IMG/VR virus record: IMGVR_UViG_3300035542_000215
DNA length: 26,230 bases
Source of the DNA: a virus
Strand: one strand, 5' to 3'
Of this stretch, positions 1,742 to 23,501 are shown piece after piece. The notes under the pieces were generated by a model. It saw only the letters and a program-made list of their open reading frames with translations. It had not been told where the DNA came from and did no database searches. Each line of letters begins with the position of its first letter. Positions within the stretch are counted from its first letter, which is position 1. Position numbers and translations under genes: made by a program.

Positions 1742-1772
1742 TATTATATGCTTTTACAAAATATTATATTCC
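1742..1772 (-). promoter_or_regulatory. Recurrent promoter motif copy 1 (DUF3232 gene)
   Basis: GGAATAT-N13-AGCATATAATA on the minus strand. Confidence 0.8.
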
Positions 1773-1790
1773 AAAAAGACAAAAAAAGAT

Positions 1791-1821
1791 GGAATATAAA
1801 AAAATATTAATGCATATAATA
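1791..1821 (+). promoter_or_regulatory. Recurrent promoter motif copy 2 (HD-GYP gene)
   Basis: GGAATAT-N13-TGCATATAATA. Confidence 0.85.
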
Positions 1822-1850
1822 TAAAAATACATCAGATAGAGGGGGCATAA

Positions 1851-2699
1851 ATGGTAATTTCAGCTTATGAAGAAACGAAAAATAAAAATATTGTAAAAAA
1901 CAATATAATTGAATTTAAAAAAGAAAAAATAAATATTGAAGAAAAACTTATAAAAGAGCCTTTGATAGATAAGATAGCAGGTGATTATTCTTATAGATAT
2001 TATATAAAAAAAGAAGATGTAGAAAATGCTAAAAAAATTATTAATTATATAAAAAAAACACATATAGACAAAGAAAAAGCTAGTTGCAATGATTTAAAAA
2101 AAGATAAAGAGATTGAAGACATAATAAAAACAGCGATAAATGATGATAGGATTATAGAAAATTTAGTGTTGATAAAAAGATGCAATAACTATACTTTTTA
2201 TCATTCTTTAAATACTTTCAAATTATCGTTGTTGATAGGGTATGAAATAGGTATTAAACAAAATGATCTTCTAGACCTTGGATATTCAGCTATTTTACAC
2301 GATACAGGTAAAATTTTTGTTGATTGTAAAATGTTGAATAAAAAAAACAAACTAACAAAAGAAGAATTTGAAAATATTAAAAAACATCCATCTAAAGGAT
2401 ACACTTATTTAAAAAATAAATATAATTTTTCTAAAAAAATACTTGAAGGTGTTTTGTATCATCATGAAAGATGGAATGGGGAAGGATATGAGGCTAAAAT
2501 AAGTGGTGATAAAATACCAAATTATGCTTACATAATAGCCGTTGCTGATGTTTTCGACGCATTAACAACTAAGAGAATTTACAGAAATAAATGGAGTATT
2601 AATATTGCCTTGTCATATATTAATAAAAACAGTAGTGTTTTATTTTCTCCAGCAGTAGTTGAAAGCTTAAATAAAATCACAAAACACAAGCCAGGGTAA
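1851..2699 (+). CDS. HD-GYP domain phosphohydrolase (putative cyclic-dinucleotide phosphodiesterase)
   Basis: TFYHS...LHDTGK...LNK..KLT.EEF..IKKHP..GY...HHERWNGEGYE...IIAVADVFDALTTKRIYR; the GYP motif reads GYE. Confidence 0.9.
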   Translation: MVISAYEETKNKNIVKNNIIEFKKEKINIEEKLIKEPLIDKIAGDYSYRYYIKKEDVENAKKIINYIKKTHIDKEKASCNDLKKDKEIEDIIKTAINDDRIIENLVLIKRCNNYTFYHSLNTFKLSLLIGYEIGIKQNDLLDLGYSAILHDTGKIFVDCKMLNKKNKLTKEEFENIKKHPSKGYTYLKNKYNFSKKILEGVLYHHERWNGEGYEAKISGDKIPNYAYIIAVADVFDALTTKRIYRNKWSINIALSYINKNSSVLFSPAVVESLNKITKHKPG

Positions 2700-2867
2700 T
2701 AATAAAATAAGATTTATTAAAATAAAGTTATGGTATAAGAAATTTAATTTTTGATTTACATAATCATTTATGATAATATCATTATTGATAACGTGTTATC
2801 TGACACTATCAAATAACAAAAGAAGGCATTGTAAAAAATAAAAAGTGTTTTGTCAAGGGGGATTAAT

Positions 2868-3227
2868 GTGAGTAGAAAGCATGGAAATTTTCCAGCTCAA
2901 ATTAGCACAACTCAATTCGTTAAGCTGCATATATTTGACTTATTAAACAGAGGAGATAAGTACGGACAAAGTATTATCGATTCAATAGAAGAAAGATTGG
3001 AAGGGAAATGGAAGCCTTCTCCTGGAATGGTATATCCACTTTTAAGGCAGTTTGAAGAAGAGGGGTATATAAGGGGATCATGGCTATCCGAAAGCAAAAG
3101 AACTATAAGGTTATACAGCTTAACACAAGATGGATACAATCACTTTAACAGTGTAAAAAAGACATATATTGAAAAGCTTGAAAACTCAAAAAAAATTATA
3201 GAACTTACCATTAAATATATATACTAA
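2868..3227 (+). CDS. PadR-family transcriptional regulator
   Basis: YGQSIIDSIEERLEGKWKPSPGMVYPLLRQFEEEGYI...KRTIRLYSLTQDG. Start moved to GTG 2868 because RBS AAGGGGGA precedes it. Confidence 0.9.
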   Translation: MSRKHGNFPAQISTTQFVKLHIFDLLNRGDKYGQSIIDSIEERLEGKWKPSPGMVYPLLRQFEEEGYIRGSWLSESKRTIRLYSLTQDGYNHFNSVKKTYIEKLENSKKIIELTIKYIY

Positions 3228-5074: not shown

Positions 5075-5105
5075 TATTATATGCAGGGGATATTTTTTAT
5101 ATTCC
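5075..5105 (-). promoter_or_regulatory. Recurrent promoter motif copy 3 (PcfJ-like gene)
   Basis: GGAATAT-N13-TGCATATAATA on the minus strand. Confidence 0.85.
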
Positions 5106-5127
5106 TATAAATTTGAAGGTGTTTAAT

Positions 5128-5156
5128 TTGACAGCTTTTGATTTGTGGGTTATACT
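5128..5156 (+). promoter_or_regulatory. sigmaA-type promoter
   Basis: TTGACA-17 bp-TATACT. Confidence 0.85.
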
Positions 5157-5272: not shown

Positions 5273-6277
5273 ATGAAAAACAGTGAAATCAAAAAAAGGA
5301 ATAAATACAGTAAAAAAGCTTATAAAAATTTTTCTACAAAAATAAAGCCGACGCTATCAAGAGATCTAGATGAGATACAAGAAGATTTAGGGCTTTCAAA
5401 GCCTCAGCTTTTAAGAAAGCTTGTAGATGTTTATAAAGAAAACAAAAATATAGTAAAATCAAAAAAACTAAAAGGAGAAGATATTATGAAAAATGAAAGA
5501 ATGATAGATAAAATGAATAGCAAAGAGGGAATGTGGATACTAGGAAGAAATATTTTAGCAGAAAAGGCTTTTGGTGATTTAATCCCAGATAATTTAAGAT
5601 ACCAAGCCTATAAAATAAATAAAAATGGAAAATATTTCTTAATATATAGTGTAACTGACGGGATTCCAAATATTAAAGCATACAAAGAAGAAAAAATTAC
5701 ATTTAACAAAAAAGGATCTAAGCTGGAAATAAGACTAGATGGAGAAGTTGAATTTTCCAATGTATACATTGGAGATACACCAGAAGAAGAAAGGGAATAT
5801 TTAGAAGAATTTTTAGAAGATTGGGATCTTACAAAAGAGGATATAGAAAAATATTCAAAAACATTTGAAAAACAAAAGCTAGAAGAAGTAGATATTTTAG
5901 TTTTACCAGAAGAAAAAGATGATAGAGAAACATCAGAGGAAGCAATGCAGCATCCTTTGATTAAAGAGATGAAAAGTGAAAAAGGAGTTTGGTTTAAAGA
6001 AAACAACTTGGTTGCACAGGCAATATTTGGAAGTAAGACAGATGAAAAGCTTCCTCCACGAGCCGTGAATTTAAAGAAAATTGGAGAAAAAATAATTGCT
6101 AAGTTTTGTGGTCAAGAAACAATTGTAAAAACATATCATGAATCAGATATTGTATTTGAAATAGATGATGATTCAGTTGTTATGATAAGAAAAGAAAAAG
6201 CTTACGATGAAGAAATAGAGGAAAGCAAAAAAATACCTAAAGATACAAAAAATTATCCAACTTTAAAAATTTTATAA
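5273..6277 (+). CDS. Hypothetical protein: N-terminal ribbon-helix-helix-like domain plus two internally repeated domains
   Basis: FSTKIKPTLSRDLDEIQEDLGLSKPQLLRKLVDVY is CopG/RHH-like; MNSKEGMW...AFG and MKSEKGVW...IFG are duplicated segments. Confidence 0.6.
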   Translation: MKNSEIKKRNKYSKKAYKNFSTKIKPTLSRDLDEIQEDLGLSKPQLLRKLVDVYKENKNIVKSKKLKGEDIMKNERMIDKMNSKEGMWILGRNILAEKAFGDLIPDNLRYQAYKINKNGKYFLIYSVTDGIPNIKAYKEEKITFNKKGSKLEIRLDGEVEFSNVYIGDTPEEEREYLEEFLEDWDLTKEDIEKYSKTFEKQKLEEVDILVLPEEKDDRETSEEAMQHPLIKEMKSEKGVWFKENNLVAQAIFGSKTDEKLPPRAVNLKKIGEKIIAKFCGQETIVKTYHESDIVFEIDDDSVVMIRKEKAYDEEIEESKKIPKDTKNYPTLKIL

Positions 6278-6284: not shown

Positions 6285-6311
6285 AAAGCCCTATTAAAAG
6301 GGGCTTTTTTT
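6285..6311 (+). terminator. Intrinsic terminator
   Basis: AAAGCCC...GGGC followed by T7. Confidence 0.75.
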
Positions 6312-6313: not shown

Positions 6314-6344
6314 GGAATATTTAAAGAGGTTAATGCATATAATA
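6314..6344 (+). promoter_or_regulatory. Recurrent promoter motif copy 4 (hpf)
   Basis: GGAATAT-N13-TGCATATAATA. Confidence 0.85.
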
Positions 6345-6381
6345 AATTATGCATAAAAAATAAAAAAAGAGAGGTATTATT

Positions 6382-6909
6382 ATGAAATTAGACATTTTTG
6401 GAAAAAATATTGCTGTTACCGAATCTTTGGAAAAAACATTAGAAGAAAAAATGAAAAAGCTAAATAAGCACTTAGGAAAAGAAACTACAGTGAGAATTGT
6501 TCTAAGAGTTGAAAAATTAAGACACATTGTAGAAATAGTTATTCCAGTATCAAAAAACGTGATAAAAGTAGAAGAATCAGCTGCTGATATGTATGAAACG
6601 ATTGACAAGGCAGTAAGTGTTACAGAAAGACAGTTGAAAAAATACAAAAATAAAATAGATAACAAAAAACATTCAAAAGAAACAATAAGAAAAAACTTTG
6701 ATAGTAAAAATCAAGATGAAAAATCAGAGAGAAAGATTGTAAAGAGAAAAGTATTTTCTTTAAAACCTATGAGTATAGAAGAAGCTATTTTACAAATGGA
6801 AATGCTGGGACATAGTTTTTTTGTTTTTTTAAATGCTGATACTGAAGAAACTAATGTAATATATAATAGAAAAGATCATAACATAGGATTAATAGAAACA
6901 AATTTTTAA
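6382..6909 (+). CDS. hpf: Long-form ribosome hibernation promoting factor (RaiA/HPF family)
   Basis: GKNIAVTESL...KM.KL.K...VEI.IP......EE...DMYETID......ERQLKKYK.K plus C-terminal IVKRKVF.LKPMSIEEAILQMEMLGHSFFVF.N......NVIY.RKD...GLIE. Confidence 0.95.
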   Translation: MKLDIFGKNIAVTESLEKTLEEKMKKLNKHLGKETTVRIVLRVEKLRHIVEIVIPVSKNVIKVEESAADMYETIDKAVSVTERQLKKYKNKIDNKKHSKETIRKNFDSKNQDEKSERKIVKRKVFSLKPMSIEEAILQMEMLGHSFFVFLNADTEETNVIYNRKDHNIGLIETNF

Positions 6910-7636: not shown

Positions 7637-7667
7637 TATTATATGCAGAGGGTTAATCTTATATTCC
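7637..7667 (-). promoter_or_regulatory. Recurrent promoter motif copy 5
   Basis: GGAATAT-N13-TGCATATAATA on the minus strand. Confidence 0.85.
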
Positions 7668-7686: not shown

Positions 7687-7717
7687 GGAATATAAAATAT
7701 ATCTTTTGCATACTATA
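7687..7717 (+). promoter_or_regulatory. Recurrent promoter motif copy 6 (NT5C gene)
   Basis: GGAATAT-N13-TGCATACTATA. Confidence 0.8.
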
Positions 7718-7767: not shown

Positions 7768-8310
7768 ATGGATAAAAAAACTATACTTATAGATGTTGAT
7801 GGAGTCATAGCACACACTATGGAGAAAACTATCGATTTATATAATAAGAGAGGTATAAATAAGGTTAAGCTAGAAGACTTACAAGAATATGATTTACATA
7901 AAAACTCTGGAGTAGATAAAAGCATTTACGATATATTTAGAGAAAAGTTCTTTTTTAGAAACTTAAAAATTGACCAAGCAGCTAAAAAGATTATAAAAAA
8001 ACTACATGATGAAGGATATGATATAATATTTTCTACAGCTATCCTAAAAGAAGGATATACCGATAGACACGAATGGTTACAAGAACATTTTCCTTATATA
8101 CCAGATAATAACTATATGTTAGGCTCTAGAAAAGATTTGCTAAAAGGTGATGTTATGATAGATGATTCACCTAAAAACCTATTAAATAGTTCATGTGAGA
8201 TGGTTTTTTGTATGGACAGACCTTGGAACAGAAGTCTTAAAGATAAAAAAATTGTAAGGGTGTTTTCTTTTGATGACATTTACAATTATATCAAAGAAAA
8301 AGACAGCTAA
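7768..8310 (+). CDS. 5'(3')-deoxyribonucleotidase, NT5C/HAD family
   Basis: ILIDVDGVIA (HAD motif I), FFRNL, WLQEHFPYIP, KDLLKGDVMIDDSPKNL, PWNR. Confidence 0.9.
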   Translation: MDKKTILIDVDGVIAHTMEKTIDLYNKRGINKVKLEDLQEYDLHKNSGVDKSIYDIFREKFFFRNLKIDQAAKKIIKKLHDEGYDIIFSTAILKEGYTDRHEWLQEHFPYIPDNNYMLGSRKDLLKGDVMIDDSPKNLLNSSCEMVFCMDRPWNRSLKDKKIVRVFSFDDIYNYIKEKDS

Positions 8311-8323
8311 AACTGTCTTTTTT
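8297..8323. terminator. Bidirectional intrinsic terminator
   Basis: AAAAAGACAG-ctaaaa-CTGTCTTTTTT between convergent genes. Confidence 0.75.
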
Positions 8324-10889
8324 ATGTTTTTTCTATTTTCTTTTTGTAGTGTTCATACCTAATTATGTAAGGACAATCATTTTTACTGCAATCTAAAATG
8401 TAATATTTATTGAAGAAATTCTCCTGTTTTATATGGAAGAAAATATGTTGGTTTAAAAATATTTCAAGATCTTGCACCTTAACATATGCTTCTGGAAATC
8501 TTCTTTCTATCATCTCTTTTACTGAAACGTATGGTTCAAATTTTAATTTTTCATTTAAATACTCATCAATTTTACGAATTAAAGATTTCTTAATTTTTAG
8601 ATCTTCCTTCAAGCAATAACCGCTCTTATTAACTTTAACTAAAATCTTTTTATATATTGAAAAAAATGAGTTAGTTGTTTCTATAGGTAGCATGTATTTA
8701 TCAGTGAAAATTTTCTTGGCATATTTTTCAGATAATATAATTTCTTTTTTAAAAAGATTCTTAAATAACTTGTAAAAATTAACATGTTCATTATCTGTTC
8801 TTTTTTTTGAGATATGAACTCCCCTAGCAAATTCATACTCCTCTTTAAAGAAGTGGTTTACTATGTTATATAAAGACCTATCATCTTCTATTCCTATTTT
8901 TTTCAACTTATCTTTACCGTTGTTAAATAAAATGTATCTATTAGTATATTGGTTGATCAGGCTGTCTTCTATTAACTTTTTAATGAATTTTATATCTTCA
9001 GCTCCCAAATCTATCATGTCTACATATGTTAATATTTGGTTATTATCCCAAAAGATAACCTTGTTACTTTCACTTACAACAGAGTGAAACTTTTTAATAC
9101 TCCAATTTAAAATATATTGACCATATTCCAAGGTTATAATCTTTCCCTCATCTTTAACAAAGGCATCCAATATTTCAACATCGGTTCTTACCGGTTGATC
9201 ATTATAGACGATTTTCTTATTTTTAAATGAAAATTTGTTTTTTAAATATACTTTTAGATAATTAAAAAGTAAGTCTTCACTATCTACGTTTGATTCTTCT
9301 AATTCAAGATCTTTTTCTATGTAGTTATAAACATCCTTTGCTGTAATATATCCAAAAGTATAATCACGGTTGTTTTTTTCCAATAATTCATTAATAAAAT
9401 TTTCTATTTTTTCTTTAGTTTTCTTATTTATATAAATATTGTTTTTATGAATTAAAGAATTATCTTTCCATGAAACAATATTTTCTACATCCTTAAGAAT
9501 AGTTTTCCATGTAGTATCGATTTTTTCATCCACAACGTTTTCGACAATTATTGAATACAAATACTTCAGTCTTTCAAGGTCGTTTCTTTGATTTTTTATA
9601 CCAAACATAAAACATTTTTCAACAAGAAAAGAATACATTTGATGTTTTAATACCTTATCTTTATAAAATACATTCATCCCTTCTTTATATCCATTTTTCA
9701 AAAGAAATTCCCTTAAACACTCCTTGTCAAAATTTGTAAAAGAAATTTTTTCATATAAATAACTTAAATAATCTTCTTCAATCTCTATGTCAAATATATC
9801 ATCCAAATTTCTCAATAAATCTTCAAACTCTTTTTCGTATTTATTTGGATTCGGTCCGTAAGCGAATACCTTGTAATTTTCTAACCAGTGAAAATTTTTA
9901 ATACTAAAATTTTTCAAAACATCTTGAAATATCTTTATCAAGTTTTTATCCTTCAGTACGTTAAAAAAAATATCTTCTTTTACAAATAAAGGTTTTTCTA
10001 GATTTTTAGTTTCCAAATAATCTTCATGTAATTTTAGGAAGTTATAAAGCTTTAACATAACTTCTTCTTTTTTTCTTCTTATTGATTCACGGCTTTTAAA
10101 TTTTTCGTTAGCTATATCAATAAGTGGTTTTTCATTCACAAGATTATCATAGTATATTTTGAAACCATCACTTTCAATCAACTTCTTCATTCTTTTTTTT
10201 ATATAAAAATGTAGAGGTGCTGACATGTAGTTTATTACTTGAAAAAAATCATCAGGATTTCTAATTTGTTCAAAAAAATTAATATAATCAAACCTTACAT
10301 TAAGTTTTTTTTCCAAATCTTTTCCCGTCGCTATATTGTAACTTCTTAAAACTTTTGAAATGTTTTTATTAAATATATGCTCTACTTTGATGTCATAAAA
10401 ATCTTCGTTTATCTTGTTTTCTAAAAAGCTATATTTTCTATGTTCTAATAACTTGTCATTGTTGAACAAGCTAAAATACTTTTCTATGAAAATTTCCTTC
10501 TTTTTCTTTCCTACTCATGGAATCTCATCTAAATTATTTAAGTCTATTTTCGAAATTTCATATAGAGAGTAGCAATTTAAATTTTTATTTAAATGCTCTA
10601 TAATTTTAAGGTATTTATTTTCATTAAAAACTATCCTTAAAGGTAAGTATTCATGACTATGCTTTATATTCTCCATACTTGAATATAAGTAAGCCTCTAC
10701 GTCTTTGCTTAATTCTTTATACAATCTTTTTTTTATATTTTTAACAAAAGGTTTAAGTTTTTTATCCTTTTCATAAGTAGAAAACTTTATGTTAATAATA
10801 TCTTTTAATTTTTTATAATTTCTTGCTTTACAGTATTCTATAAAAGGTTTAAAGTATGGTTCACAAAAAACACTTTTTATTTCATTCAT
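8322..10889 (-). pseudogene. About 855-codon protein with RNAP alphaCTD-like/HhH repeats and a sigma region-4-like HTH, interrupted by one in-frame TGA (10515-10517)
   Basis: ORFs 10515-10889 and 8322-10469 share a frame and read LDEIP*VGKKKKEIFIEKYFSLFNNDK across the junction. PLIDIANEKFKSRESIRRKKEEVMLKL resembles a sigma4 HTH. RBS AGGGGG lies before 10889. Confidence 0.65.
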
Positions 10890-11067: not shown

Positions 11068-11098
11068 GGAATATAAGATTTTACACTTGCATATAATA
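11068..11098 (+). promoter_or_regulatory. Recurrent promoter motif copy 7
   Basis: GGAATAT-N13-TGCATATAATA. Confidence 0.85.
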
Positions 11099-11156: not shown

Positions 11157-11624
11157 ATGCACGGTAATATTTATCAAGTTTCAGAGGATAAAAACTTAGA
11201 TGGTTTGTCGGCATGGAAAATTGAGGAACAAATGCCTTTTGCAGACTATGTATGTGAAACAGGAGAAAAAGAGAAACTACTAAGACATAAAAGAGAAGTA
11301 GTTTCACTAAAAGAAAGAGTGGGAAAATACGGGGTAAAAGTTGATGAGAAGGAAAGTACTATAGTTTTTAAAAAGGGATTTAAGGAAAGATATTTTAAAA
11401 ACAAGTTTAAATCTTTTAAAAAACTTACAAATGATTTAACTTTAGAAGCTTTTAGCGGCGAAACATCGTCAAATGGTAGCATTCACTTAATAGAAACAGC
11501 TCTAGAGGATAAATTTAGTGCTTACATATATGATGAGTATCCTAAAACCCTTGATGATTTTGTGAGAGAGCTAAAAGAAGAAAAGACGTATTATTTAGGA
11601 GAAATTTTTGGTTATAAATGGTAA
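11157..11624 (+). CDS. Hypothetical protein
   Basis: 155-aa ORF with RBS AGGAGG; first gene of a 4-gene run. Confidence 0.8.
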   Translation: MHGNIYQVSEDKNLDGLSAWKIEEQMPFADYVCETGEKEKLLRHKREVVSLKERVGKYGVKVDEKESTIVFKKGFKERYFKNKFKSFKKLTNDLTLEAFSGETSSNGSIHLIETALEDKFSAYIYDEYPKTLDDFVRELKEEKTYYLGEIFGYKW

Positions 11625-11639
11625 ACAAAGGAGATAATT

Positions 11640-12284
11640 ATGGGACAATATTATGAAAGTCTAATAATTGACGAAAAAACAATAGAAGATCAACCAGGAA
11701 AAGCAATTATAAAAAAAGAAATATTTTTAAAATACGAACTTGAATCAAGGAAATTAACGGAACATTCTTGGGTGAATAATTCAGAAGTTAACAACGTACT
11801 TCTTTATATTTTAAATAATCCCTGTAAAATAGCATGGGTAGGTGATTATGCAGATGAAACATATGATGCATATGAAAAAGCAAAAAAAAGCAAGCCATTA
11901 TCTGAAGATGAATATTTTGATATTTACAATGCTGTTTATAGTGATAATGCAGGAGCAAAAAAATTAAATAATCCTTGCAATGAAAAATATAACAAGGAGA
12001 AGCTTCAAAAGTTACTCCTTGGTAAAAAGAAAAAATACTTGATCAACCATACCATAAATGAATATTTTGAGATTGGTAAATATATAGAAAAAAATGATAG
12101 AAATGGTTGGTGCTTACATCCACTACCTATATTAACTGCTTGTGGAAATGGACAAGGCGGAGGAGACTATATATCACCAGTAGGACAAGAAGATGTTGGA
12201 AAATGGGCTTACGATTTAATTGAGTTTTCTTATGACTTACCAGGGGATAACTATCAAGAAGTGGTGTATTTCTTTGTAGATTAA
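11640..12284 (+). CDS. Hypothetical protein of a phage/MGE-type family (MGQYY...EHSW...WVGDYAD...HPLPILTA.GNG.GGGDY...VG.WA.D)
   Basis: RBS AAGGAG; motif-rich, enzyme-like sequence; function not recognised. Confidence 0.75.
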   Translation: MGQYYESLIIDEKTIEDQPGKAIIKKEIFLKYELESRKLTEHSWVNNSEVNNVLLYILNNPCKIAWVGDYADETYDAYEKAKKSKPLSEDEYFDIYNAVYSDNAGAKKLNNPCNEKYNKEKLQKLLLGKKKKYLINHTINEYFEIGKYIEKNDRNGWCLHPLPILTACGNGQGGGDYISPVGQEDVGKWAYDLIEFSYDLPGDNYQEVVYFFVD

Positions 12285-12347
12285 TACAAAAAATAAATGT
12301 ATAGGGAGGATTTTTTCCTTTCTATACATTAAGTAAAGGAGATAAGA

Positions 12348-12671
12348 ATGAAAATATTTTTAGAAACAAAAGAAGATAGAGAAAATTTTGAAAAATTTTG
12401 TGAAAAATATGATGGATTAGAAGAAGATCTAAAGCTAAACTCTATTATATCTAATGAAGAAGAAAGCTTTGCTGTTGTGTCTTGGGCTTTGGAAGATTTT
12501 GACGATAAATTTCCGGAACATGCTAGTAAAGAAGCTAAAATCAAAGGAATAAGAAAAATTGAAAAGATTCTAAGAGAAGGTATGATACAAGATGGGTGGA
12601 ACACCATTGAAGAGGTAAGGTGTTTAGGTCTGCATGATTTCATAGAAGAAAATGATTGTAACCTACAATAA
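12348..12671 (+). CDS. Acidic hypothetical protein
   Basis: 107-aa ORF with RBS AAGGAG. Confidence 0.75.
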   Translation: MKIFLETKEDRENFEKFCEKYDGLEEDLKLNSIISNEEESFAVVSWALEDFDDKFPEHASKEAKIKGIRKIEKILREGMIQDGWNTIEEVRCLGLHDFIEENDCNLQ

Positions 12672-12683
12672 AAAGGAGGAAAC

Positions 12684-13196: not shown

Positions 13197-13209
13197 ACAA
13201 GGGTTTTTT
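13185..13209 (+). terminator. Intrinsic terminator
   Basis: AAAACCCTT-taaac-AAGGGTTTTTT. Confidence 0.7.
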
Positions 13210-13214
13210 ATTTT

Positions 13215-13245
13215 GGAATATTTTAATAGACAACTGCATATAATA
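13215..13245 (+). promoter_or_regulatory. Recurrent promoter motif copy 8
   Basis: GGAATAT-N13-TGCATATAATA. Confidence 0.85.
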
Positions 13246-13272
13246 AATAGAGATAAAAGAGGAGGTTTTTTC

Positions 13273-14028
13273 ATGAAGAAAAAAATAATAAAGATTGCAG
13301 CTACATTAACTATTTCAGCCCTTATTTTTATAGCAGGAGCTTCGGTTCAAGTTGCTACAGGTAAAATAGTGAACATAAACAATTTATCTAAAATTGAAAC
13401 ACTAGAACAGGATTTCACAGATAATAGCTTACCTAATTTGTTAAATGAAATATATTTAGAAGCCCAGTATTTTAACGAAATTGCCCCATCTTTAAGTTAT
13501 GAAATAAAAAAATATTATATTGAGGATGATAAGGACTTTGAAAATTATTCTAATACATTTCACGGTTTTAAAGAAGATCTTGATAAGAATCATTTGAAAA
13601 TAGTAGATGATAAGCTAAGAGGAATAATAGTAACAGCTGATTTGCAGTACTTTCTAAATAATTACAAGGAAGATTTGAGTTATGATAGCAAAGATTACTT
13701 ATCTTTCAGGTTATATGAAGAAAAAAACCATCTTTACAATAAAAACTTCGACACTATTGACATGGACGAAGTAGTTAAAAGGATAAATTTGATTAACGAA
13801 AGATTACGCACAGACACAATGTATTTCAATGAATACAAAATATTAAAAAAATATTACATCGACGTTTTTACAGGGGAAAGTCATGATTATTATTTTGATT
13901 TTTCGAAAAATCAGCTTAGACCGTATGCTGTTAAAATGTATGAAAAATATTCGGCAAGAAAAGATGAAATCGGTGAGATATCCAAGGAAATATTAGAAAA
14001 TGGACCATGGCAGCTATCTATTAATTAA
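13273..14028 (+). CDS. Exported or membrane-anchored hypothetical protein
   Basis: Start moved to ATG 13273 (RBS GGAGG, downstream of terminator and motif); N-terminus MKKKIIKIAATLTISALIFIAGA is signal-peptide-like. Confidence 0.75.
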   Translation: MKKKIIKIAATLTISALIFIAGASVQVATGKIVNINNLSKIETLEQDFTDNSLPNLLNEIYLEAQYFNEIAPSLSYEIKKYYIEDDKDFENYSNTFHGFKEDLDKNHLKIVDDKLRGIIVTADLQYFLNNYKEDLSYDSKDYLSFRLYEEKNHLYNKNFDTIDMDEVVKRINLINERLRTDTMYFNEYKILKKYYIDVFTGESHDYYFDFSKNQLRPYAVKMYEKYSARKDEIGEISKEILENGPWQLSIN

Positions 14029-14043: not shown

Positions 14044-16533
14044 ATGGAAAATGGATACAGGTATGATGTAAAAATTGATAAAAAAAGTCATTTGGACGAA
14101 TACAAGCTTAACAGTATTCTATCTTTTGATGCGTACTTATATTCTAAGGTATATTTTAATGAAGAGAATGGATATGGAATATACACCGTTAAGGTTGAGG
14201 ATGATAAATATTTTAAAATATCAGGTTTTTTTATATCTGATTTAATTATTGGAAACAAATATAAGATTAAAGGAAAAGTTTCCACATACAAGGGAGAAAA
14301 ACAGTTGTATATAAAAGAGTACGAAAGAACCCTTCCTAAAAATGAAAAAGAAATTATGAAGTACCTTAGCGACTTTAAAAAAATAGAATACCATAAAGAA
14401 GACCTTTATGAAGCTTTTGGCATGGAAACTTTAGAAATCATAAAAGATTCTCCCGAAATAATTCCTTCTAAAATAGATAGCATTTCAATTAACCTAGCCT
14501 TAGATTGGCAAGAAAAATTAAATAACAAGGAACAGGTTGAATTTGCAGCAGAAATGCTTTTAGGTTTAGGGCTAAACAATTATGAAGCAAGATCAGTATT
14601 ATATAAGTTTGGAGAAAGAGTTGTTTTTCAAATAAAAGAAGATCCGTATTTTCTAGTAGGTAAAACAAAATATTTTGATTTTAAAAAAACAGATGCCATG
14701 GCTCTAGAAAGAGGAGAAAAATTAGACAGCAAGAATAGAATAAGAGAAGCCTTCAAGTATATATTAAGCAAAGCTGAAGAAAAAGGACATTGTTTTCTTG
14801 ACGATGGTTTGCTAATAAAAACAACTGCAAAACTTTTAGCCTATATAATTCCTACTAAAAAAGCAAGTAGCTTACTTAAAAAAGAAACTTTTGAATATAA
14901 AAATAAGAAAATGATAATTGAGATAGATAAAGATTTTCTTAAAAAAAGTCTAAAAAAATCTAAAGAAAAGAAATTATCTTATTGCTATATATACGTACCG
15001 TCAAAAGACAACTTAAAAGAAACTCTTTTTGAACTTGAAAAAGACAACCACTTTAAAATATTTGAAAAAAAAGTTTACCTGAAAGAAATTTATGATGCTG
15101 AATTTTATATAGCAAAAAAACTAAGAAAAATAAAAGAAGAAGAAAAGAATATCGATGTGGATTACAAAAGAATGATTGATAAATATCTGCAAAATAAAAA
15201 AATCAACCTTGAAGAAAAACAAAGAGAAGCACTTGAAAAAGCAATTTCAAAAAAAGGTGGAGTTTTAATAATAAATGGAGGTCCAGGATGTGGAAAAACA
15301 TTTATTACTAAAATTATTATTGATCTTTTAAAGCAAGTTTCCCAAATGGAAAACTTTCCATTCACCATAAGACTTTTAGCTCCAACTGGTAAAGCTGCAA
15401 AAGTATTAAGTGAAGCTACCAGTTACGAAGCTACTACTATTCATAGAGGTTTAAAATATCAAGACGATGGTTTTTTTATGGTTAATGAGGAAAATCCATT
15501 TAGAGAAAATTTAATAATTGTAGATGAGGCTTCAATGCTTGATGTTAAAATAGCAGCATCTTTATTTAAAGCAGTATTAAACCATTCAAAACTAATAATA
15601 ATTGGAGATTCCAACCAATTACCTCCAATAGGACCAGGGTTGGTGTTAAAAGATATTGTTAGAAGCGACATTATTGATACTGTAACACTGAATGCTCCTA
15701 AAAGACAGCTTGAAAACTCAGGGATCGTATACAATACAAGAAAAATAATCGAAAAAGAAATGATCCATTCGCAAAGAGAAAAAGAAGATTTTTTTGTTCT
15801 TAAAAAAGATACGGAGTTAGAATGCTTAACAAGTGTATTAACAGCAGTTAGCGAAATATCTATTAAGAAGAAAATAAGTTTTGATAAAATACAAATACTT
15901 TCTCCACAGAAAAATGGACTTCTTGGAGTAGACTCTTTAAACTATCATATTCAAAAAATATTGAATGGTAAAAATAAAGGAGAAAAAATTTACAATAAAA
16001 GAGTTAAGGCTCTAAAAGATGGGAAGATAATTGATAAAAGCTTGTTTTTTAAAAAAGGGGACAAGGTTATCCATACTAAAAATAACTACAACAAAGAATG
16101 GTATTTTAAACACAAGCATTTAAAATATCAAATCGACTATTCTATAAAAGGAATAGCAAATGGTGAAACAGGCGTTATAGATGACATAGAAATCATAAAT
16201 GAGTACGGGGTTGAGAGGAAGAGAGTTGTTGTTAAGTATGATGATGGATACGTTTTTTATGAGGATAATTTTAAAGAGCTAGAACATGCTTACGCTTTAA
16301 CTATACATAAAAGCCAGGGAAGTCAATGGGAGGGAGTTATTATCCCCATAATATCAAGTACAATTTTTAACAAAAAGTTGTATACAAACAATTTGCTTTA
16401 TACTGCATGTTCAAGAGCAAAAGATATTGTCGTAGTTACTGGAGATCCAGAAGATATAAAAAGAACTATTTTAAACAATACTCAAATAAGTAGAAACACA
16501 ACATTAAAAGAATTTCTAACTTCCTTAACATAG
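14044..16533 (+). CDS. recD2: RecD2-like SF1B ATP-dependent DNA helicase
   Basis: N-terminal OB-like region, IKEDPY, GGPGCGKT, LAPTGKAAK.L, TIHR, IVDEASM, IGDSNQLPPIGPG, GDKVI..KNNY, AYALTIHKSQGSQW, LLYTACSRAK. Confidence 0.92.
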   Translation: MENGYRYDVKIDKKSHLDEYKLNSILSFDAYLYSKVYFNEENGYGIYTVKVEDDKYFKISGFFISDLIIGNKYKIKGKVSTYKGEKQLYIKEYERTLPKNEKEIMKYLSDFKKIEYHKEDLYEAFGMETLEIIKDSPEIIPSKIDSISINLALDWQEKLNNKEQVEFAAEMLLGLGLNNYEARSVLYKFGERVVFQIKEDPYFLVGKTKYFDFKKTDAMALERGEKLDSKNRIREAFKYILSKAEEKGHCFLDDGLLIKTTAKLLAYIIPTKKASSLLKKETFEYKNKKMIIEIDKDFLKKSLKKSKEKKLSYCYIYVPSKDNLKETLFELEKDNHFKIFEKKVYLKEIYDAEFYIAKKLRKIKEEEKNIDVDYKRMIDKYLQNKKINLEEKQREALEKAISKKGGVLIINGGPGCGKTFITKIIIDLLKQVSQMENFPFTIRLLAPTGKAAKVLSEATSYEATTIHRGLKYQDDGFFMVNEENPFRENLIIVDEASMLDVKIAASLFKAVLNHSKLIIIGDSNQLPPIGPGLVLKDIVRSDIIDTVTLNAPKRQLENSGIVYNTRKIIEKEMIHSQREKEDFFVLKKDTELECLTSVLTAVSEISIKKKISFDKIQILSPQKNGLLGVDSLNYHIQKILNGKNKGEKIYNKRVKALKDGKIIDKSLFFKKGDKVIHTKNNYNKEWYFKHKHLKYQIDYSIKGIANGETGVIDDIEIINEYGVERKRVVVKYDDGYVFYEDNFKELEHAYALTIHKSQGSQWEGVIIPIISSTIFNKKLYTNNLLYTACSRAKDIVVVTGDPEDIKRTILNNTQISRNTTLKEFLTSLT

Positions 16534-16535: not shown

Positions 16536-16566
16536 GGAATATTATTTGTGCAAAGTGCATATAATA
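16536..16566 (+). promoter_or_regulatory. Recurrent promoter motif copy 9 (spoVG-virD4)
   Basis: GGAATAT-N13-TGCATATAATA, starting just after the recD2 stop. Confidence 0.85.
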
Positions 16567-16597: not shown

Positions 16598-16876
16598 ATG
16601 AGTGAAAAAAAAGTATCTAATATTAAAATTTTTAAAAGAAGAGATGAAAAAAAGTCTGAAGATGATTATTTTTTAGGAACTGTAAGTTTTTTACTATTTG
16701 ATTCATTTTTAGTGCATGGGGCAAGATTATTTGATAAAGAGGGAAATAGGTATGTTTTAATGCCTAGTAGAAAATTAAAGGACAAGTGGTTGGATATTTG
16801 CCATCCTACTACTCAAGAATTAAGAAAAGAAATAGAAAAAGAGATTTTTGAAATTTATGACAAAATAACTGATTAA
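16598..16876 (+). CDS. spoVG: SpoVG-family nucleic-acid-binding protein
   Basis: SF.L.DSFLVHG.RL....G..YV.MPSRK.....DICHP.TQELR..I. Confidence 0.88.
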   Translation: MSEKKVSNIKIFKRRDEKKSEDDYFLGTVSFLLFDSFLVHGARLFDKEGNRYVLMPSRKLKDKWLDICHPTTQELRKEIEKEIFEIYDKITD

Positions 16877-16887: not shown

Positions 16888-19002
16888 ATGAGAAATAAAA
16901 ATGTAGGGGCAGTAATTGCCCCTTATTTCAATATTTTATTCGCATTTATGGTTGCATTTTTTGCTTTTATAACAATTGGAACTATTTTTTTAGATATAAA
17001 CTACTATAAATTAAACATAGCTACATTTTTGATTATTACTGTTTTCTTTTTAATTTTTAAAGGGATTTCGGCTGATGAAAATTTGCCTCAGGCAATTTTT
17101 CTATATAAAATTGCTGTAATTTTAGTTTTTGTAACTATATTTAACATTCCTTACATATTGTTAAAAACTAAGGTAGATGATGTTCCCAAACCGTTGTTTT
17201 TCATGTTGAATACTACAGGTTTATTCATTGGAATATTTTTAGTAAATAAAAAGAATTTCTATTCATCAAAAGATGAAATGGATAATAAGAAAAGTAGAAA
17301 AGGATTTTTCTGGAAAAATCAAAACAAAAAACCTGGTGACATTGAAATATGTAAGGATATAAAAACAAACGAACCTATAATATTACCATCTAAAGATAGG
17401 TTTTTACATATGTTAATTCTTGGACCAACAGGTTCTGGTAAGACTTCTCAAGTGATAATACCTATGCTAAATCAAGATTTGAAAAATAAAGAAATGGGGA
17501 TAACTGTTATTGAACCTAAATCTGATCTTGCCGAAAATGTCTATGCCTTAGCTAAAATTAATGGCAGAGATTGTATTTATTTTAACCCAACTTTTGATGA
17601 TTGTCCTAAATTTAATCCGTTATACGGAGAAGAAGATATAGTTATTGAAAATATGGCTACAACTTTTAAAATGTTAAACTTAGATTCACCCCAATTTTTC
17701 TCCGATATGAATGAGCAATTAATAAGAAACTCTTTAAAAGTTTTAAAAAGACTTTATGGTAATAAAGCTACATTAGTTCATCTGTCTAGACTTATTCAAA
17801 ATAATGGTGGAGCTGGAAAAGAGATAATCAATAGATTTATGAAAATAACTTCTGAAACAGCAGAAATTGCAAAAGAAAATTCTGATATAGCAGCCTGGTT
17901 TATTAACGATTATTTAACAGAAAAAAGTAAAACTTATGAGCACTGTTCAGGGTTAAGGTCCCAAGTTGCAAAGATTGTTTCAAACAAGTATTTGAGAAAT
18001 GTTTTAAATCCAGTTGATGGTGAAAATGATATTGACTTTGCTAAACACTTAAAAGAAGGAGGAGTATTGGCTATTACTACTGCTCAAGGTGCTTTAAGAC
18101 AATTAGGTGGATATTTGGGTTATTTCATTATTTTACAATTTCAGTCCGCAGTCTTTAATAGGCCTGGAAATGAAAATACCAGAAGGAGTCATGCTTTATA
18201 TATAGATGAATTTCAAACTTATTCGAATCCTGGTTTTTCAGATATGCTAACTCAGGGTAGAAGTTATAGGGTTGCATCTCACTTGGCAACTCAAAATAGA
18301 GCTCTTATGGGAATGGGTGCTGGTAGAGATGGTAAAAATTTCGTTGATCTAGTTTCTACAAATGCTAGAAATATAATTCTTTTTCCCGGTGCTAACGCAG
18401 CTGATGCTGAGTTTTATGCTAAACAATTTGGAAAGATAAAAGTTACTAAAAAGTCTATTAGTACTTCTAGAAAAAAATTCAATCCCCTCTATGGTTTTGA
18501 TAAACTTGGAAATCCTTCAGAAAGCATAAGTGAAAGAGAAGATATGGAAGATAGGATTTCACCTACTGATATTATTTATAGGAAGTTCGGAGAGATAACT
18601 TATTGCATAGTAAAAAATAATACTCTACAGTATCCAGATGTCGGAAAGGTTTCTTTTGTGAGTAAGGAAACTAAAAGAGCCATGGATGATATAGTTGAAG
18701 AGTATAACGAATCAAAATCTAAAATTAATGAAAAATATGCAGATCCAGTTGTTGGAGATTCTCAAAGAGATGCGGATTTAGAGGATGACATAGAAATTAA
18801 TTTTGAAGAAGATTTTACAATAGAAAAAGAAATAAAAGATGGAAATAAACAAGAAGAAACAGAAGATAGGACCGATCCTATTTTGAAAAAACAAAAAAAA
18901 GAGGATGTTAAGGATAATCAAGAAAATAATTCTGAAAATAAAGAAGAGAAACAAGAAGAAAAAGAAATATTGTTTGAGGAAGAAGAGGATAACCTTATTT
19001 AG
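16888..19002 (+). CDS. VirD4/TraG/TraD-like type IV coupling protein
   Basis: About four N-terminal TM segments, DRFLHMLILGPTGSGKT (Walker A), VIEPKSD, LYIDEFQ (Walker B), QGRSY....LATQ, acidic C-terminal tail. Confidence 0.88.
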   Translation: MRNKNVGAVIAPYFNILFAFMVAFFAFITIGTIFLDINYYKLNIATFLIITVFFLIFKGISADENLPQAIFLYKIAVILVFVTIFNIPYILLKTKVDDVPKPLFFMLNTTGLFIGIFLVNKKNFYSSKDEMDNKKSRKGFFWKNQNKKPGDIEICKDIKTNEPIILPSKDRFLHMLILGPTGSGKTSQVIIPMLNQDLKNKEMGITVIEPKSDLAENVYALAKINGRDCIYFNPTFDDCPKFNPLYGEEDIVIENMATTFKMLNLDSPQFFSDMNEQLIRNSLKVLKRLYGNKATLVHLSRLIQNNGGAGKEIINRFMKITSETAEIAKENSDIAAWFINDYLTEKSKTYEHCSGLRSQVAKIVSNKYLRNVLNPVDGENDIDFAKHLKEGGVLAITTAQGALRQLGGYLGYFIILQFQSAVFNRPGNENTRRSHALYIDEFQTYSNPGFSDMLTQGRSYRVASHLATQNRALMGMGAGRDGKNFVDLVSTNARNIILFPGANAADAEFYAKQFGKIKVTKKSISTSRKKFNPLYGFDKLGNPSESISEREDMEDRISPTDIIYRKFGEITYCIVKNNTLQYPDVGKVSFVSKETKRAMDDIVEEYNESKSKINEKYADPVVGDSQRDADLEDDIEINFEEDFTIEKEIKDGNKQEETEDRTDPILKKQKKEDVKDNQENNSENKEEKQEEKEILFEEEEDNLI

Positions 19003-20452: not shown

Positions 20453-20480
20453 TTGACAGCTTTTTTAGCTGTGTTAAAAT
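20453..20480 (+). promoter_or_regulatory. sigmaA-type promoter with extended -10
   Basis: TTGACA-16 bp-TAAAAT, with TGn before the -10. Confidence 0.7.
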
Positions 20481-20508: not shown

Positions 20509-20539
20509 GGAATAATTTAAGTTATTAATGCATACTATA
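20509..20539 (+). promoter_or_regulatory. Recurrent promoter motif copy 10 (exonuclease-recG)
   Basis: GGAATAA-N13-TGCATACTATA. Confidence 0.75.
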
Positions 20540-20573: not shown

Positions 20574-21431
20574 ATGCGGATATCAGGAGAAAAAATGGAA
20601 AAAGCTTTAGTAAACTCAAAAACATATATAAGCATTGATATAGAAACTACTGGTTTTTCAATTAAAAAAGGTGCAGAAATAATAGAAATTGCAGCCGTAA
20701 AAATAGATACAGTTAATAAAAAGAGAACAGGCGTTTTTCAAACCTTCGTGAAGCCAGTAAAAAGAAAAACTATACCCAAAAAAATTGTAGAATTAACAAA
20801 TATAAACCAAGACATGGTTAAAGATGCCCCATTTATAGAATCAGCTTTAAGAAGCTTAAATAATTTTATCAAAAATTATCCACTGGTTTTTCACAATGCA
20901 AGTTTTGACTGGGATAGGTTTTTAGATCCTTTATTTAGAAAACAGGGGATAGTAAAAAATAACTTAATAATAGATACCCTTCCAATCGCCAAAGTGTGCT
21001 TTCCAAATATAAAAAGTAGAAAGCTTCAAAGTGTATGCAACCACTTAGGTTATAACACTAGCTTTCATAGGGCTATAACAGATGCAAGAGCTACTGCTAC
21101 GGTAGCTTATCATTGCAAGAAGATATTGGAAAAAAAATATGAAATTAAACCTGAAGAAAATAAAGAAATTCAAATGTCAATATCAACAGAAGATAAAACT
21201 TTACCCGATTTAAGAATCAAGAGTTTTAACTACTGGGAGAAAGCAAAATATAAAAGAGTTTATGTCCTAACTACATGGGGGAATGTCTTTTATGACTTTA
21301 AAACAAAAGAATGGTCCGTTAAAAATGCTACGGTTGAAAAAACTATAGATTTTAAAAAAATAGAAGACAAGTTTTTAAAGGCTTCAAGACTTAAGTCTTT
21401 AAAAGAAGCTGAACAAAAATTTGTATCATAA
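20574..21431 (+). CDS. DEDDh 3'-5' exonuclease (DnaQ/PolC-exonuclease-like)
   Basis: SIDIETTG, EIIEIAAVK, LVFHNASFD, IDTL, HRAITDA. Confidence 0.9.
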   Translation: MRISGEKMEKALVNSKTYISIDIETTGFSIKKGAEIIEIAAVKIDTVNKKRTGVFQTFVKPVKRKTIPKKIVELTNINQDMVKDAPFIESALRSLNNFIKNYPLVFHNASFDWDRFLDPLFRKQGIVKNNLIIDTLPIAKVCFPNIKSRKLQSVCNHLGYNTSFHRAITDARATATVAYHCKKILEKKYEIKPEENKEIQMSISTEDKTLPDLRIKSFNYWEKAKYKRVYVLTTWGNVFYDFKTKEWSVKNATVEKTIDFKKIEDKFLKASRLKSLKEAEQKFVS

Positions 21432-21443
21432 CAGGAGGAAAAT

Positions 21444-23363
21444 ATGAGTATACCACTTTCAGAGCTTGGAGTTACCGAAAGAAAAGTAAAACAATTTTAT
21501 AGAAAAGATATAGAAGATGTAGAAGACCTTCTTAATTTTTTCCCTATCAATTATAGAAACTATCAAAAACTTACCAGTATAAGCGATCTCAAAGAAGGCA
21601 CTTATGCTGCTGTATCAGGATTAGTTATAGATAAAGAACAGCCAAATTCGAAAATGTTTAGTGTTTTTATTCAAGATAATAACAATAGACAATTTAGGAT
21701 AAATTGGTTTGGTGGAGATTACTACTTTAACAGAGTACAACTTGGAGAAGAGTATATATTTTGTGGAAAGATAACTTCTTTTAGGTATTCTCTTTGTATG
21801 AATTCTCCAGAGTTATTTACTAAAAATATAAAGGAACTTTCAATATATCCTAGATACTCTAAAATAAGAGGAATGTCTAGGGACTACCTTGTAGATAAGA
21901 TAGAAAAAGCCTTAAAATATCCAGTGAAATTTAACGAAGATAAAAAACAGATAGAACTAGCCGATAAGTTTAAGTTGATGCCTAAAAAACAAGCCTATAA
22001 AGAAATTCATAATCCAACTTCTATTAATTTGTATAGAAAAGCTAAGCTAAGATTTGCCTTCGATATAATATATGATTTTTATAATAGCATGAAAAAAAGA
22101 AGCACGGTATCTAACTTCGTTCCTCCAGAAATTAAAGTAGTTGAAAAAGGGGAAGAGTTCATATATAACCTTCCTTTTAAATTAACGAAAGACCAAGCTG
22201 CAACGATTGAAAAATTAAAGAATAAAATGCTTTCTAAGCAAAAAATACAAGGACTGATACTAGGAGATGTTGGTAGTGGAAAAACAGTTGTGGCAGCTTA
22301 TCTGTGCACTGTAATGGCTGAAAATAGATACCAATCAGCCGTCCTTAATCCCACTCAAGTTTTAGCGAATCAAAACTATGAAGTTATTAAAGACTACCTA
22401 GAGCCTTTTGGATATAAAGTTGAAATCTTAACTTCTTCAACAAAAGCAAAAAAAAGAAGGAAAATTTTAGAAGAATTAAAAAGTGGAGACATTGATGTTT
22501 TAGTAGGAACCCATTCTTTAATAAATGAAAGAGTTGCTTTTAAAAATATCGGCCTTTCCTTAATAGATGAAGAGCATAGATTTGGGGTGAAGCAAAAGGA
22601 AAAACTAAGAAAAACTTATCAGGAAAATATTCATTCTGTATCTATGAGTGCAACTCCAATTCCAAGAAGTTTGGCTTTATCAATTTTTGGGAAAAATATT
22701 GAGATTTACAACATTAAAACTAAACCAAAAGGAAGAAAGCCTGTTGAAACAACTCAAGTCTATAATTTAGATAAAATATTTGAAAAAATTCAAGAAGAGG
22801 TAAAAAAAGGAAGACAAGCCTATATTGTTTGTCCTTTGATAGAAGATTCCGAATCAGAAGCTTTTAAAAATGTATTGAGTGTAAAGAAAATATATGAAGA
22901 AGTCAATAAAAAGTTTAAACATGATTCAGATATAAATATATGCAGAATATCAGGAGATATGAAGGATAAAAAAATTGACAAAACTATAAGAGATTTTGCT
23001 AAGAAAAAATACCAGGTTTTAATATCAACTACAATTATAGAAGTTGGAATTAATGTGCCGAATGCATCACTTATGGCAATTTGTTCTGCTGAAAGATTTG
23101 GGTTGTCACAACTTCATCAGTTAAGAGGTAGGGTAGGAAGAGCTAAACATGATTCTTATTGCTTACTTATGAGCCATCACAAAAATGAAAGACTTAAAAC
23201 TTTAGAAAAAACAACTGATGGTTTTGAAATTGCTGAAAAGGATTTAGAATTAAGAGGCGGAGGATCTTTAACTGGTTTAGTGCAAACAGGATATTCTGAA
23301 GAAATTGAAAGTATTTTGCAGTATGCAAAACTATCAAAAGCTGTTCAAGCTGAGGTATGTTAA
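21444..23363 (+). CDS. recG: RecG-family SF2 helicase
   Basis: LPFKLT.DQ, LILGDVGSGKTVVA, PTQVLA.Q, IDEEHRFGV.Q, MSATPIPRSLAL, TTIIEVGINVPNA, AERFGLSQLHQLRGRVGR, DGFEIAEKDLELRG.G. Confidence 0.95.
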   Translation: MSIPLSELGVTERKVKQFYRKDIEDVEDLLNFFPINYRNYQKLTSISDLKEGTYAAVSGLVIDKEQPNSKMFSVFIQDNNNRQFRINWFGGDYYFNRVQLGEEYIFCGKITSFRYSLCMNSPELFTKNIKELSIYPRYSKIRGMSRDYLVDKIEKALKYPVKFNEDKKQIELADKFKLMPKKQAYKEIHNPTSINLYRKAKLRFAFDIIYDFYNSMKKRSTVSNFVPPEIKVVEKGEEFIYNLPFKLTKDQAATIEKLKNKMLSKQKIQGLILGDVGSGKTVVAAYLCTVMAENRYQSAVLNPTQVLANQNYEVIKDYLEPFGYKVEILTSSTKAKKRRKILEELKSGDIDVLVGTHSLINERVAFKNIGLSLIDEEHRFGVKQKEKLRKTYQENIHSVSMSATPIPRSLALSIFGKNIEIYNIKTKPKGRKPVETTQVYNLDKIFEKIQEEVKKGRQAYIVCPLIEDSESEAFKNVLSVKKIYEEVNKKFKHDSDINICRISGDMKDKKIDKTIRDFAKKKYQVLISTTIIEVGINVPNASLMAICSAERFGLSQLHQLRGRVGRAKHDSYCLLMSHHKNERLKTLEKTTDGFEIAEKDLELRGGGSLTGLVQTGYSEEIESILQYAKLSKAVQAEVC

Positions 23364-23434
23364 TAACTCCCCCTATCTAAATATTAACGTAGTTTGAGGA
23401 AAGAGACTTTTTACCAAAAAATGTTAAATAAATG

Positions 23435-23468
23435 ATAAACAGCAAGATTGTTTCTTGCTGTTTATTTT
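23435..23468 (+). terminator. Intrinsic terminator
   Basis: ATAAACAGCAAGA-ttgtt-TCTTGCTGTTTAT followed by TTT. Confidence 0.8.
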
Positions 23469-23470
23469 AT

Positions 23471-23501
23471 GGAATATTTAGGCTGGTAAATGCATATAAT
23501 A
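23471..23501 (+). promoter_or_regulatory. Recurrent promoter motif copy 11 (surface-protein gene)
   Basis: GGAATAT-N13-TGCATATAATA. Confidence 0.85.

Follow-up and report, generated by a model that had tools for sequence, protein, structure and literature searches.

Uniform promoter-like sites resembling sigmaE promoters precede most transcription units of a large plasmid from uncultured oil-field Firmicutes

The window analyzed here, the whole 26,230-nt stretch of IMG/VR record IMGVR_UViG_3300035542_000215, has a GC content of 25–30% and belongs to the 101,412-bp JGI metagenome contig Ga0376494_000041. The element is a large plasmid of uncultured oil-field Firmicutes, and the same plasmid was recovered in several JGI and Logan assemblies. 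Its genes in the window encode a Rep3 initiator, DUF3232, HD-domain, PadR, PcfJ, and HPF proteins, an NT5C nucleotidase, a guanylate-kinase-like protein, a RecD2-like helicase, SpoVG, a type IV coupling protein, a DEDDh exonuclease, a RecG-like helicase, and a BspA-type leucine-rich repeat (LRR) surface protein. By exact-protein look-ups walking upstream, we assembled a composite of 80,991 bp (window coordinates −52,868 to +27,238); the walk ended at −52.9 kb and the far end of the contig lies at −74 kb, so that 81 of 101 kb are covered. Beyond the window, the composite adds ParAB, a class II ribonucleotide reductase, an NAD-dependent ligase, a YoeB/YefM pair, YopX proteins, IscB, and a transglutaminase-like gene. 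A 110-kb contig with the same 715-aa open reading frame (ORF) as the window also exists. A megablast of the window against PLSDB gave no match.

The sequence-only reading of the window had described 11 copies of a bipartite motif with fixed geometry, each intergenic, facing a gene, and ending 27–61 nt before its start codon. Searching for GGAATAT-N13-TGCATATAATA with up to three mismatches returned exactly 11 sites, at the same coordinates and on the same strands (Table 1), compared with 0.08 expected by chance (100 dinucleotide shuffles; largest shuffle count, 2). Eight of these sites are exact, and the remaining three carry one, two, and three mismatches. When the flanks were read against the ORF list, the intergenic position, the orientation, and the distance held for all 11, and the downstream start codons are preceded by a ribosome-binding site (RBS). 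Specifically, the ORF at 13174–14028 only appears to span site 13215, as its true start is the RBS-preceded ATG at 13273. Several sites lie directly 3′ of terminator-like hairpins, and two pairs (1742/1791 and 7637/7687) form back-to-back divergent promoter-like arrangements.

Across the composite, the number of sites rose to 38 (11 in the window and 27 more). Thirty-six of them are intergenic, on DNA that is 77% coding by the ORF mask (binomial p ~2e-21); the two others are site 13215, for which the over-extended ORF is explained above, and site −51539, where we assume an over-extended ORF as well. An RBS-preceded gene start on the same strand follows 36 of the 38 sites at 20–92 nt (at 221 nt in one case), mostly at 27–63 nt, and the start-finding heuristic returned no gene start for two sites. 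Between most sites and their gene starts lies a common leader with an AAGGAG hairpin, through which, for instance, the stretch from site 1742 to the DUF3232 start runs. Uniform promoter-like sites thus precede most transcription units (38 in 81 kb), and the proposal of an element-wide regulon over genes of unrelated origin extends well beyond the window. The functions it had named (DNA processing, transfer, adhesion, and host physiology) need trimming: unrelated genes do share the motif, but the transfer part comes down to a single coupling-protein gene, with no type IV secretion genes seen.

A logo of the 38 sites reads, in order, a T-tract, GGAATAT, an A-rich proximal spacer, a variable stretch, TGCATATaATA, and a downstream A. 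Position 5 of GGAATAT is T, and ATA is invariant, in all 38 sites; in the window, the −10 element is CATATAAT in 9 of 11 sites and CATACTAT in the other 2, with CATA and the final AT invariant. The 38 sites were collected with the motif itself, so that some of the apparent invariance of the boxes comes from the selection, which inflates it. The spacer had been called free, which applies to most of it, but its first five bases are A in 55–76% of the 38 sites. Apart from this bias, spacers and flanks are unconserved across sites, and what is conserved is two boxes at fixed spacing. An A stands six bases past TATAAT in 31 of 38 sites, at the position expected for a transcription start by a sigma factor of the sigma-70 family. 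Position, orientation, fixed geometry, and this conserved A at the expected +1 support the view that the sites are promoter-like.

Table 1. Recurrent promoter-like sites of the window and canonical sigmaA-type promoters of the plasmid (negative positions lie upstream of the window)
Feature	Position	Strand	Upstream context	Downstream gene(s)	Distance to start (nt)
Promoter-like site, 1 mismatch	1742..1772	−	Divergent to 1791	DUF3232 gene 1693-1304	48
Exact site	1791..1821	+		HD-domain gene 1851-2699, then PadR gene	29 (ATG)
Exact site	5075..5105	−		PcfJ-like gene 5024-3240	50 (ATG)
Exact site	6314..6344	+	Terminator hairpin 6285-6307	HPF ribosome-hibernation gene 6382-6909	37 (ATG)
Exact site	7637..7667	−	Divergent to 7687	ORFans 7579-7304 and 7275-6973	57 (ATG)
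Variant site, −10 CATACTATA, 2 mismatches	7687..7717	+		NT5C 5′-nucleotidase gene 7768-8310	50 (ATG)
Exact site	11068..11098	+		Four-gene unit 11157-13196 (three ORFans and guanylate-kinase-like gene)	58 (ATG)
Exact site	13215..13245	+	Terminator-like hairpin	251-aa ORF (ATG 13273), RecD2-like helicase 14044-16533	27 (ATG)
Exact site	16536..16566	+		SpoVG 16598-16876 and type IV coupling protein 16888-19002	31 (ATG)
Weakest site, GGAATAA and CATACTATA, 3 mismatches	20509..20539	+		DEDDh exonuclease 20574-21431 and RecG-like helicase	
Exact site	23471..23501	+	Terminator-like hairpin	BspA-type LRR surface-protein gene from 23563	61 (ATG)
Canonical sigmaA-type promoter, 11/12 matches	5128-5156	+			
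Canonical sigmaA-type promoter, 11/12 matches	2856-2828	−			
Canonical sigmaA-type promoter, 11/12 matches	20453-20480	+			
Canonical sigmaA-type promoter, 11/12 matches	−2454	−			
Canonical sigmaA-type promoter, 11/12 matches	−7850	+			
Canonical sigmaA-type promoter, 11/12 matches	−34556	+			

In Clostridioides difficile and Bacillus subtilis, sigmaE promoters have an ATA −35 and sigmaK promoters an AC −35, the −10 is of a common CATA type, and Gln217 of sigmaE versus Arg in sigmaK decides between T and C at the −35; CATATAAT is the −10 of the C. difficile sigK P2 promoter (Saujet et al., PMC3789822). Recast as GAATATW-14-CATATAAT, the window motif has GAATAT[A/T] in all sites, which fits kmATATT, and a −10 that fits CATAcAnT / CATATnAT; the −35 7-mer and the −10 8-mer are 14 nt apart in every site, a spacing fixed by the way the motif was constructed. 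The Helmann-Moran consensus for sigmaE reportedly reads ZHATAXX-14-CATACAHT, with the same 14-nt spacing. We assign the motif to the sigmaE type because both boxes, the spacing, and the discriminating T agree with sigmaE rules, and the likeness to sigmaE promoters with a sigmaK-like −10 that had been noticed from the letters of the window agrees with the published boxes. Compared with sigmaE promoters of B. subtilis and of C. difficile, the plasmid sites share the ATA −35, the CATA-type −10 in either form, the 14-nt spacing, and a T at the position that Gln217 reads; they differ in that an invariant GG precedes the −35 and an invariant TG precedes CATA, and in that ~40 near-identical consensus copies stand before non-sporulation genes on a plasmid. 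SigmaK promoters (AC-17-CATANNNTA) resemble them in the −10, since the plasmid's CATATAATA matches a sigmaK −10 perfectly and has the same sequence as the sigK P2 box, but all 38 sites carry the sigmaE-type T rather than C at the discriminating base. The sigmaK feature of AC 17 nt before CATA is found in none of the 38 and is present only on a phage contig described below (GGAACAT).

The motif had also been read as sigmaA geometry, and the arithmetic of GAATAT-17-TATAAT is correct. However, this reading is weakened by the coexistence, on the same element, of six promoters of the form TTGACA-16/18-TATAAT (11 of 12 bases matching), all intergenic (Table 1), which makes the recurrent motif a second, separate promoter class. 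Although TATAAT is present in the motif, GAATAT matches TTGACA at none of six positions at 17 nt (GGAATA at two of six at 18 nt), and TG stands two bases before the hexamer, where an extended −10 would have it one base before. Consensus sequences for sigmaH, sigmaF, sigmaG, sigmaB, sigmaD, and TcdR-type factors were ruled out by box sequence or spacing. A sigmaA-like TTGACA-16-TAAAAT starts at 20453, a short way upstream of the weakest site (20509), and the exonuclease/RecG unit may accordingly be served by two putative promoters.

A private programme read by an element-encoded sigma factor had been proposed for the window, and the searches of the 81 kb did not bear this out. Pfam detected no sigma-70 domain among the window ORFs, a HMMER search of the composite with a profile made from 128 sigma sequences gave no sigma-70-family gene (best E, 0.06), and hhalign of every composite ORF against this profile gave a highest probability of 14%. 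Candidates for the plasmid's sigma factor picked among 120 homologues of the megaplasmid sigma factors described below (P0029 and P0085) belonged to other elements. At 8322-10889 (−) of the window, ORFs of 124 and 715 aa are one 855-codon frame split by a single TGA (IP*VGKKK). The frame has no recurrent motif upstream and is an ORFan, its sole match among 5.8 billion proteins being itself, with no Pfam, PDB, profile, or homologue support, including for any DNA-binding domain; a stretch resembling sigma region 4.2 (SRESIRRKKEEVMLKL) was spotted by eye. About 22.6 kb before the window start, a gene for a 144-aa protein with a Pfam RNA_pol_A_CTD match (contig L227, 3470-3904, +) lies inside a five-gene unit headed by a recurrent promoter-like site (−21453).

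Related plasmids do encode such a factor. The coupling protein of the window is 50–65% identical to proteins of 300–700-kb plasmids of Paenibacillus, Bacillus, Clostridium, and Clostridioides, and in all four megaplasmids examined for this synteny (NC_017177, NC_018878, NZ_CP013615, and NC_014628), the HPF gene adjoins the coupling-protein gene, as it does in the window. Each of the four encodes a sigma factor of 216–256 aa whose best models are SigK and SigE (117–148 bits, below the family cut-offs); CDBI1_RS20030 and BTB_RS31560 are two of these genes. We regard these proteins, which are 44–48% identical to one another, as lacking a pro-sequence because their alignment begins only at about model residue 41–63. 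The family numbers at least 596 relatives at E values up to 1e-20. In five elements examined, the gene order is conserved: genes for thioredoxin, a hypothetical protein, and the sigma factor are followed by type IV secretion genes (PrgI in records that extend far enough), and in two of the elements a ClpX-like gene lies 3′ of the sigma gene. Region 4.2 reads MSQAN(I/V)SK, which places Gln at the position that specifies T. We found no promoter assigned to this family, which sits inside the type IV secretion/pilus backbone of Firmicute megaplasmids.

In the megaplasmid BTB_502p of B. thuringiensis Bt407, there are 19 copies of GCATATAAT versus 8.4 expected, of which 11 are intergenic and 10 stand before genes; 8 of these 10 have an AACAGGT(A) leader at a fixed distance downstream. 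Dyad discovery missed these candidate promoters, while a k-mer orientation test recovered the leader, AACAGGTA, and ~10 GCATATAAT sites. On this plasmid (NC_018878.1), ~40 transcription units carry a leader, ataaAACAGGTAttt, ~25–45 nt before the RBS (e.g., at 197646, 228729, 423766, and 425549); in eight of these units, a GCATATAAT −10 stands upstream at a constant distance. On the 300-kb plasmid of C. difficile BI1 (NC_017177.1), dyad and k-mer discovery revealed no plasmid-wide promoter and returned only CRISPR arrays, coding repeats, and a local iteron-like array of 15 copies (AAACTACAATAATATTTGCATACTTT); these arrays, many short CRISPR ones with 65 copies of a 30-nt repeat and the iteron-like one, lie in the regions 113,000–129,000 and 269,100–270,600.

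A metagenome scan with rescoring yielded three groups of contigs that carry the motif or a sister of it. Group A (GC 24–30%) has the same motif as the window, with which it has in common only the 334-aa protein of 5273-6277 (44–54% identity). Group C (GC 47–50%, plus two contigs of 31–33% GC placed by motif alone) has GGAATAg-N13-yGCATATnATA before a flotillin-like gene, ORFans, and a DEDDh exonuclease 30–32% identical to that of the window. Group B comprises the 46-kb phage contig IMGVR_UViG_3300028242_000061, with 13 GGAACAT-N13-TGCATATAATA sites on one strand (control, 0) in which AC stands exactly 17 nt before the −10, and two further contigs. This phage contig encodes a 197-aa sigma factor (best specific model SigK, E 1.2e-11) with a GGAACAT site immediately upstream of its gene, and another contig has a 55%-identical copy arranged likewise. 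The phage protein has Lys at the discriminating position and its putative promoters carry C, a pairing in the direction that the Gln/T, Arg/C rule would predict. A search of IMG/VR for relatives of this sigma factor returned only the query, and matches in cultured phages were at most 33% identical.

Exact matches elsewhere are sparse. In IMG/VR, the exact-motif scan gave 12 single matches, only one of which (L008) turned out to be a multi-site element. In the GTDB species genomes (596 Gb), there were 48 single exact matches, approximately the chance level and most without a gene behind them; no lineage uses the motif genome-wide, and no match precedes a sporulation gene. The matches with a gene behind, which precede ParM, Fic, a phage O-type replication protein, and a flotillin-like gene on a mobile contig, are all on mobile elements, with GC contents of 24–60%. 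One of them, on the 2-kb contig CAZUSM010000264.1 (L022) of an Oscillospiraceae metagenome-assembled genome with 60% GC, is an exact 18-base motif 33 nt before a Fic-family gene resembling "mobile mystery protein B"; an AT-rich match of this length on such a contig is very unlikely to be due to chance.

Taken together, the 11 window sites and at least 27 further plasmid sites are probably real promoters of one class, read by a sigma factor of the sigmaE/sigmaK family and of the T-reading sigmaE type rather than by sigmaA. By the rules for sigmaE and sigmaK, region 4.2 with Gln at the position of B. subtilis sigmaE residue 217 would read the ATA in GGAATAT and region 2.4 would read CATATAAT. 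Transcription would start at the conserved A six bases past TATAAT (near 6349 and 11103 for sites 6314 and 11068, for example), and most transcripts would then carry the AAGGAG-hairpin leader. Cassettes would be built alike, from a terminator or T-tract, a promoter, a leader, and one or more genes, and because of this uniform build a single sigma factor would turn on ~40 cassettes together, with ordinary sigmaA promoters presumably kept by replication, partition, and a few other genes.

Such sites might instead mark cassette boundaries, act in recombination, or be a dispersed repeat left by duplicated cassette ends; they do sit at cassette junctions, often just past terminator-like hairpins, and are highly uniform (8 of 11 exact in the window). 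We consider this highly improbable, as at least 36 of 38 sites face a gene start at a mostly narrow distance (full range, 20–221 nt), conservation is confined to the two boxes and spares spacers and flanks, pairs stand divergently back to back, the same boxes recur with unrelated flanks on elements from 24% to 60% GC, and no recombinase is associated with the sites. It is likewise unlikely, if less so, that the sites are sigmaA promoters with TATAAT at 17 bp whose GGAATAT is bound by an element-encoded class II activator or appropriator. The correct spacing and the T-tracts upstream of sites are compatible with this, and two candidate activators are at hand, namely, the motif-less 855-aa ORFan with its region-4.2-like stretch and the stand-alone alpha-CTD-like protein of 144 aa upstream of the window. 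Such an activator, however, would leave the invariant TGCA before TATAAT unexplained, with a TG that would have to lie one base closer to the hexamer for an extended −10 and a −35 that has nothing of TTGACA in the 17-bp register; the 855-aa frame contains a TGA and is devoid of a recognizable DNA-binding domain, and the bipartite motif also occurs on unrelated elements that have neither protein.

Within the preferred explanation, the source of the sigma factor divides the evidence more evenly. Host mother-cell sigmaE (with some sigmaK) may read all sites, so that cargo and DNA-metabolism genes would be expressed only in the sporulating, terminal mother cell, a tentative but serious possibility. 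It remains a strong competitor because of the close consensus match, near-perfect and including the T-type −35, and because no sigma gene was found in the 81 kb. Moreover, the relatives of the coupling protein are on plasmids of spore formers, SpoVG and a transglutaminase-like gene are present on the plasmid, and cry genes of plasmids that depend on sigmaE and sigmaK are a precedent. On the other side, exact matches across 596 Gb never stand before sporulation genes, the phage carrying the sister motif encodes a sigma factor of its own, and nucleotide metabolism, repair, ribosome hibernation, tmRNA, and the coupling protein fit a burst of replication or transfer better than the building of a spore. 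In addition, the only bin with same-motif contigs, a metagenome-assembled genome with two group A contigs of 1.1 and 1.4 kb, has no Spo0A or sigmaE above the cut-off, which is a weak point given a fragmented bin and uncertain binning. We slightly favor a mobile-element-borne, pro-less paralogue of sigmaE/sigmaK because of the phage precedent, the megaplasmid sigma factors with Gln, the fact that the motif is confined to mobile elements, and the vegetative type of the genes; it would be supplied in trans, from plasmid DNA outside the sequenced part or from a co-resident megaplasmid.

Several observations weigh against this explanation as a whole or in part, beside the inflated invariance of the boxes and the bin just mentioned. 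The promoter function of the sites is deduced from their sequence, and an element-encoded reader is hypothetical, no sigma gene having been found in 81 of 101 kb. A programme confined to the mother cell would be odd for a ribonucleotide reductase, a ligase, helicases, and a coupling protein. The full motif is absent from all four related megaplasmids; the C. difficile BI1 plasmid shows neither GCATATAAT enrichment nor a plasmid-wide CATA regulon, and the Bt407 megaplasmid has only ~10 such sites. Finally, the residue of the phage sigma factor is Lys, not the Arg of sigmaK.

We can offer only tentatively a more specific picture, in which the plasmid would have no sigma factor of its own and ~40 cassettes would be locked to a sigmaE-type factor supplied in trans, through a promoter "standard" shared by unrelated mobile elements of Clostridia with GC contents of 24–60%. 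If the supplier were the host's mother-cell sigmaE, sporulation would be coupled to a burst of plasmid replication, repair, and surface-protein expression in a doomed mother cell; if it were the pro-less paralogue of a helper megaplasmid, the plasmid would be a sigma-keyed satellite that wakes only with the transfer programme of its helper. In either case, a sporulation-class reader would mean that one developmental or helper-supplied switch controls the entire plasmid, and it would provide a clean natural case of a mobile element that standardizes its cassettes (promoter, leader, and terminator) around one non-housekeeping sigma factor. The T of the plasmid versus the C of the phage, set against Gln versus Lys/Arg in region 4.2, amounts to a testable specificity rule, and the plasmid motif becomes a candidate target for the pro-less megaplasmid sigma family.

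As to the surface-protein gene at the right end of the window, all assemblies break within it (BspA-LRR/Listeria-Bacteroides repeat, 1225+ aa; window 23563 to the contig end; contig L001, 16676-20350).

Element-wide uniform promoters are known from systems that encode their own sigma factor, such as SigN (ZpdN) of the B. subtilis plasmid pBS32 and SPO1 gp28 with its middle promoters. The present plasmid resembles both in having uniform promoter-like sites before most transcription units; the promoter sequences differ, and the sigma gene lies on the element in both of those systems, whereas none was found on the plasmid. In B. thuringiensis, the BtI and BtII promoters of the plasmid gene cry1A are transcribed in the mother cell by host sigmaE and sigmaK. 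Plasmid cargo genes stand behind promoters of the mother-cell sigmaE/sigmaK class there as they appear to here, but those promoters serve single toxin genes, whereas here a plasmid-wide standard precedes genes of nucleic-acid metabolism, hibernation, and the cell surface. We found no published account of a plasmid-wide standard of sigmaE-consensus promoters, the nearest being these plasmid cry genes and phage SPO1, whose sigma factor gp2.21 is sporulation-like, in a genome with sigmaK-like promoters, the link between the two having been hypothesized (PMC9429907). Unlike SPO1, the plasmid is a Rep3 and ParAB replicon without a sigma gene in the part covered, and most of its cassettes rather than a few carry the motif; like SPO1, it is a mobile element with promoters apparently of the mother-cell class, and its relatives carry a sporulation-like sigma gene.

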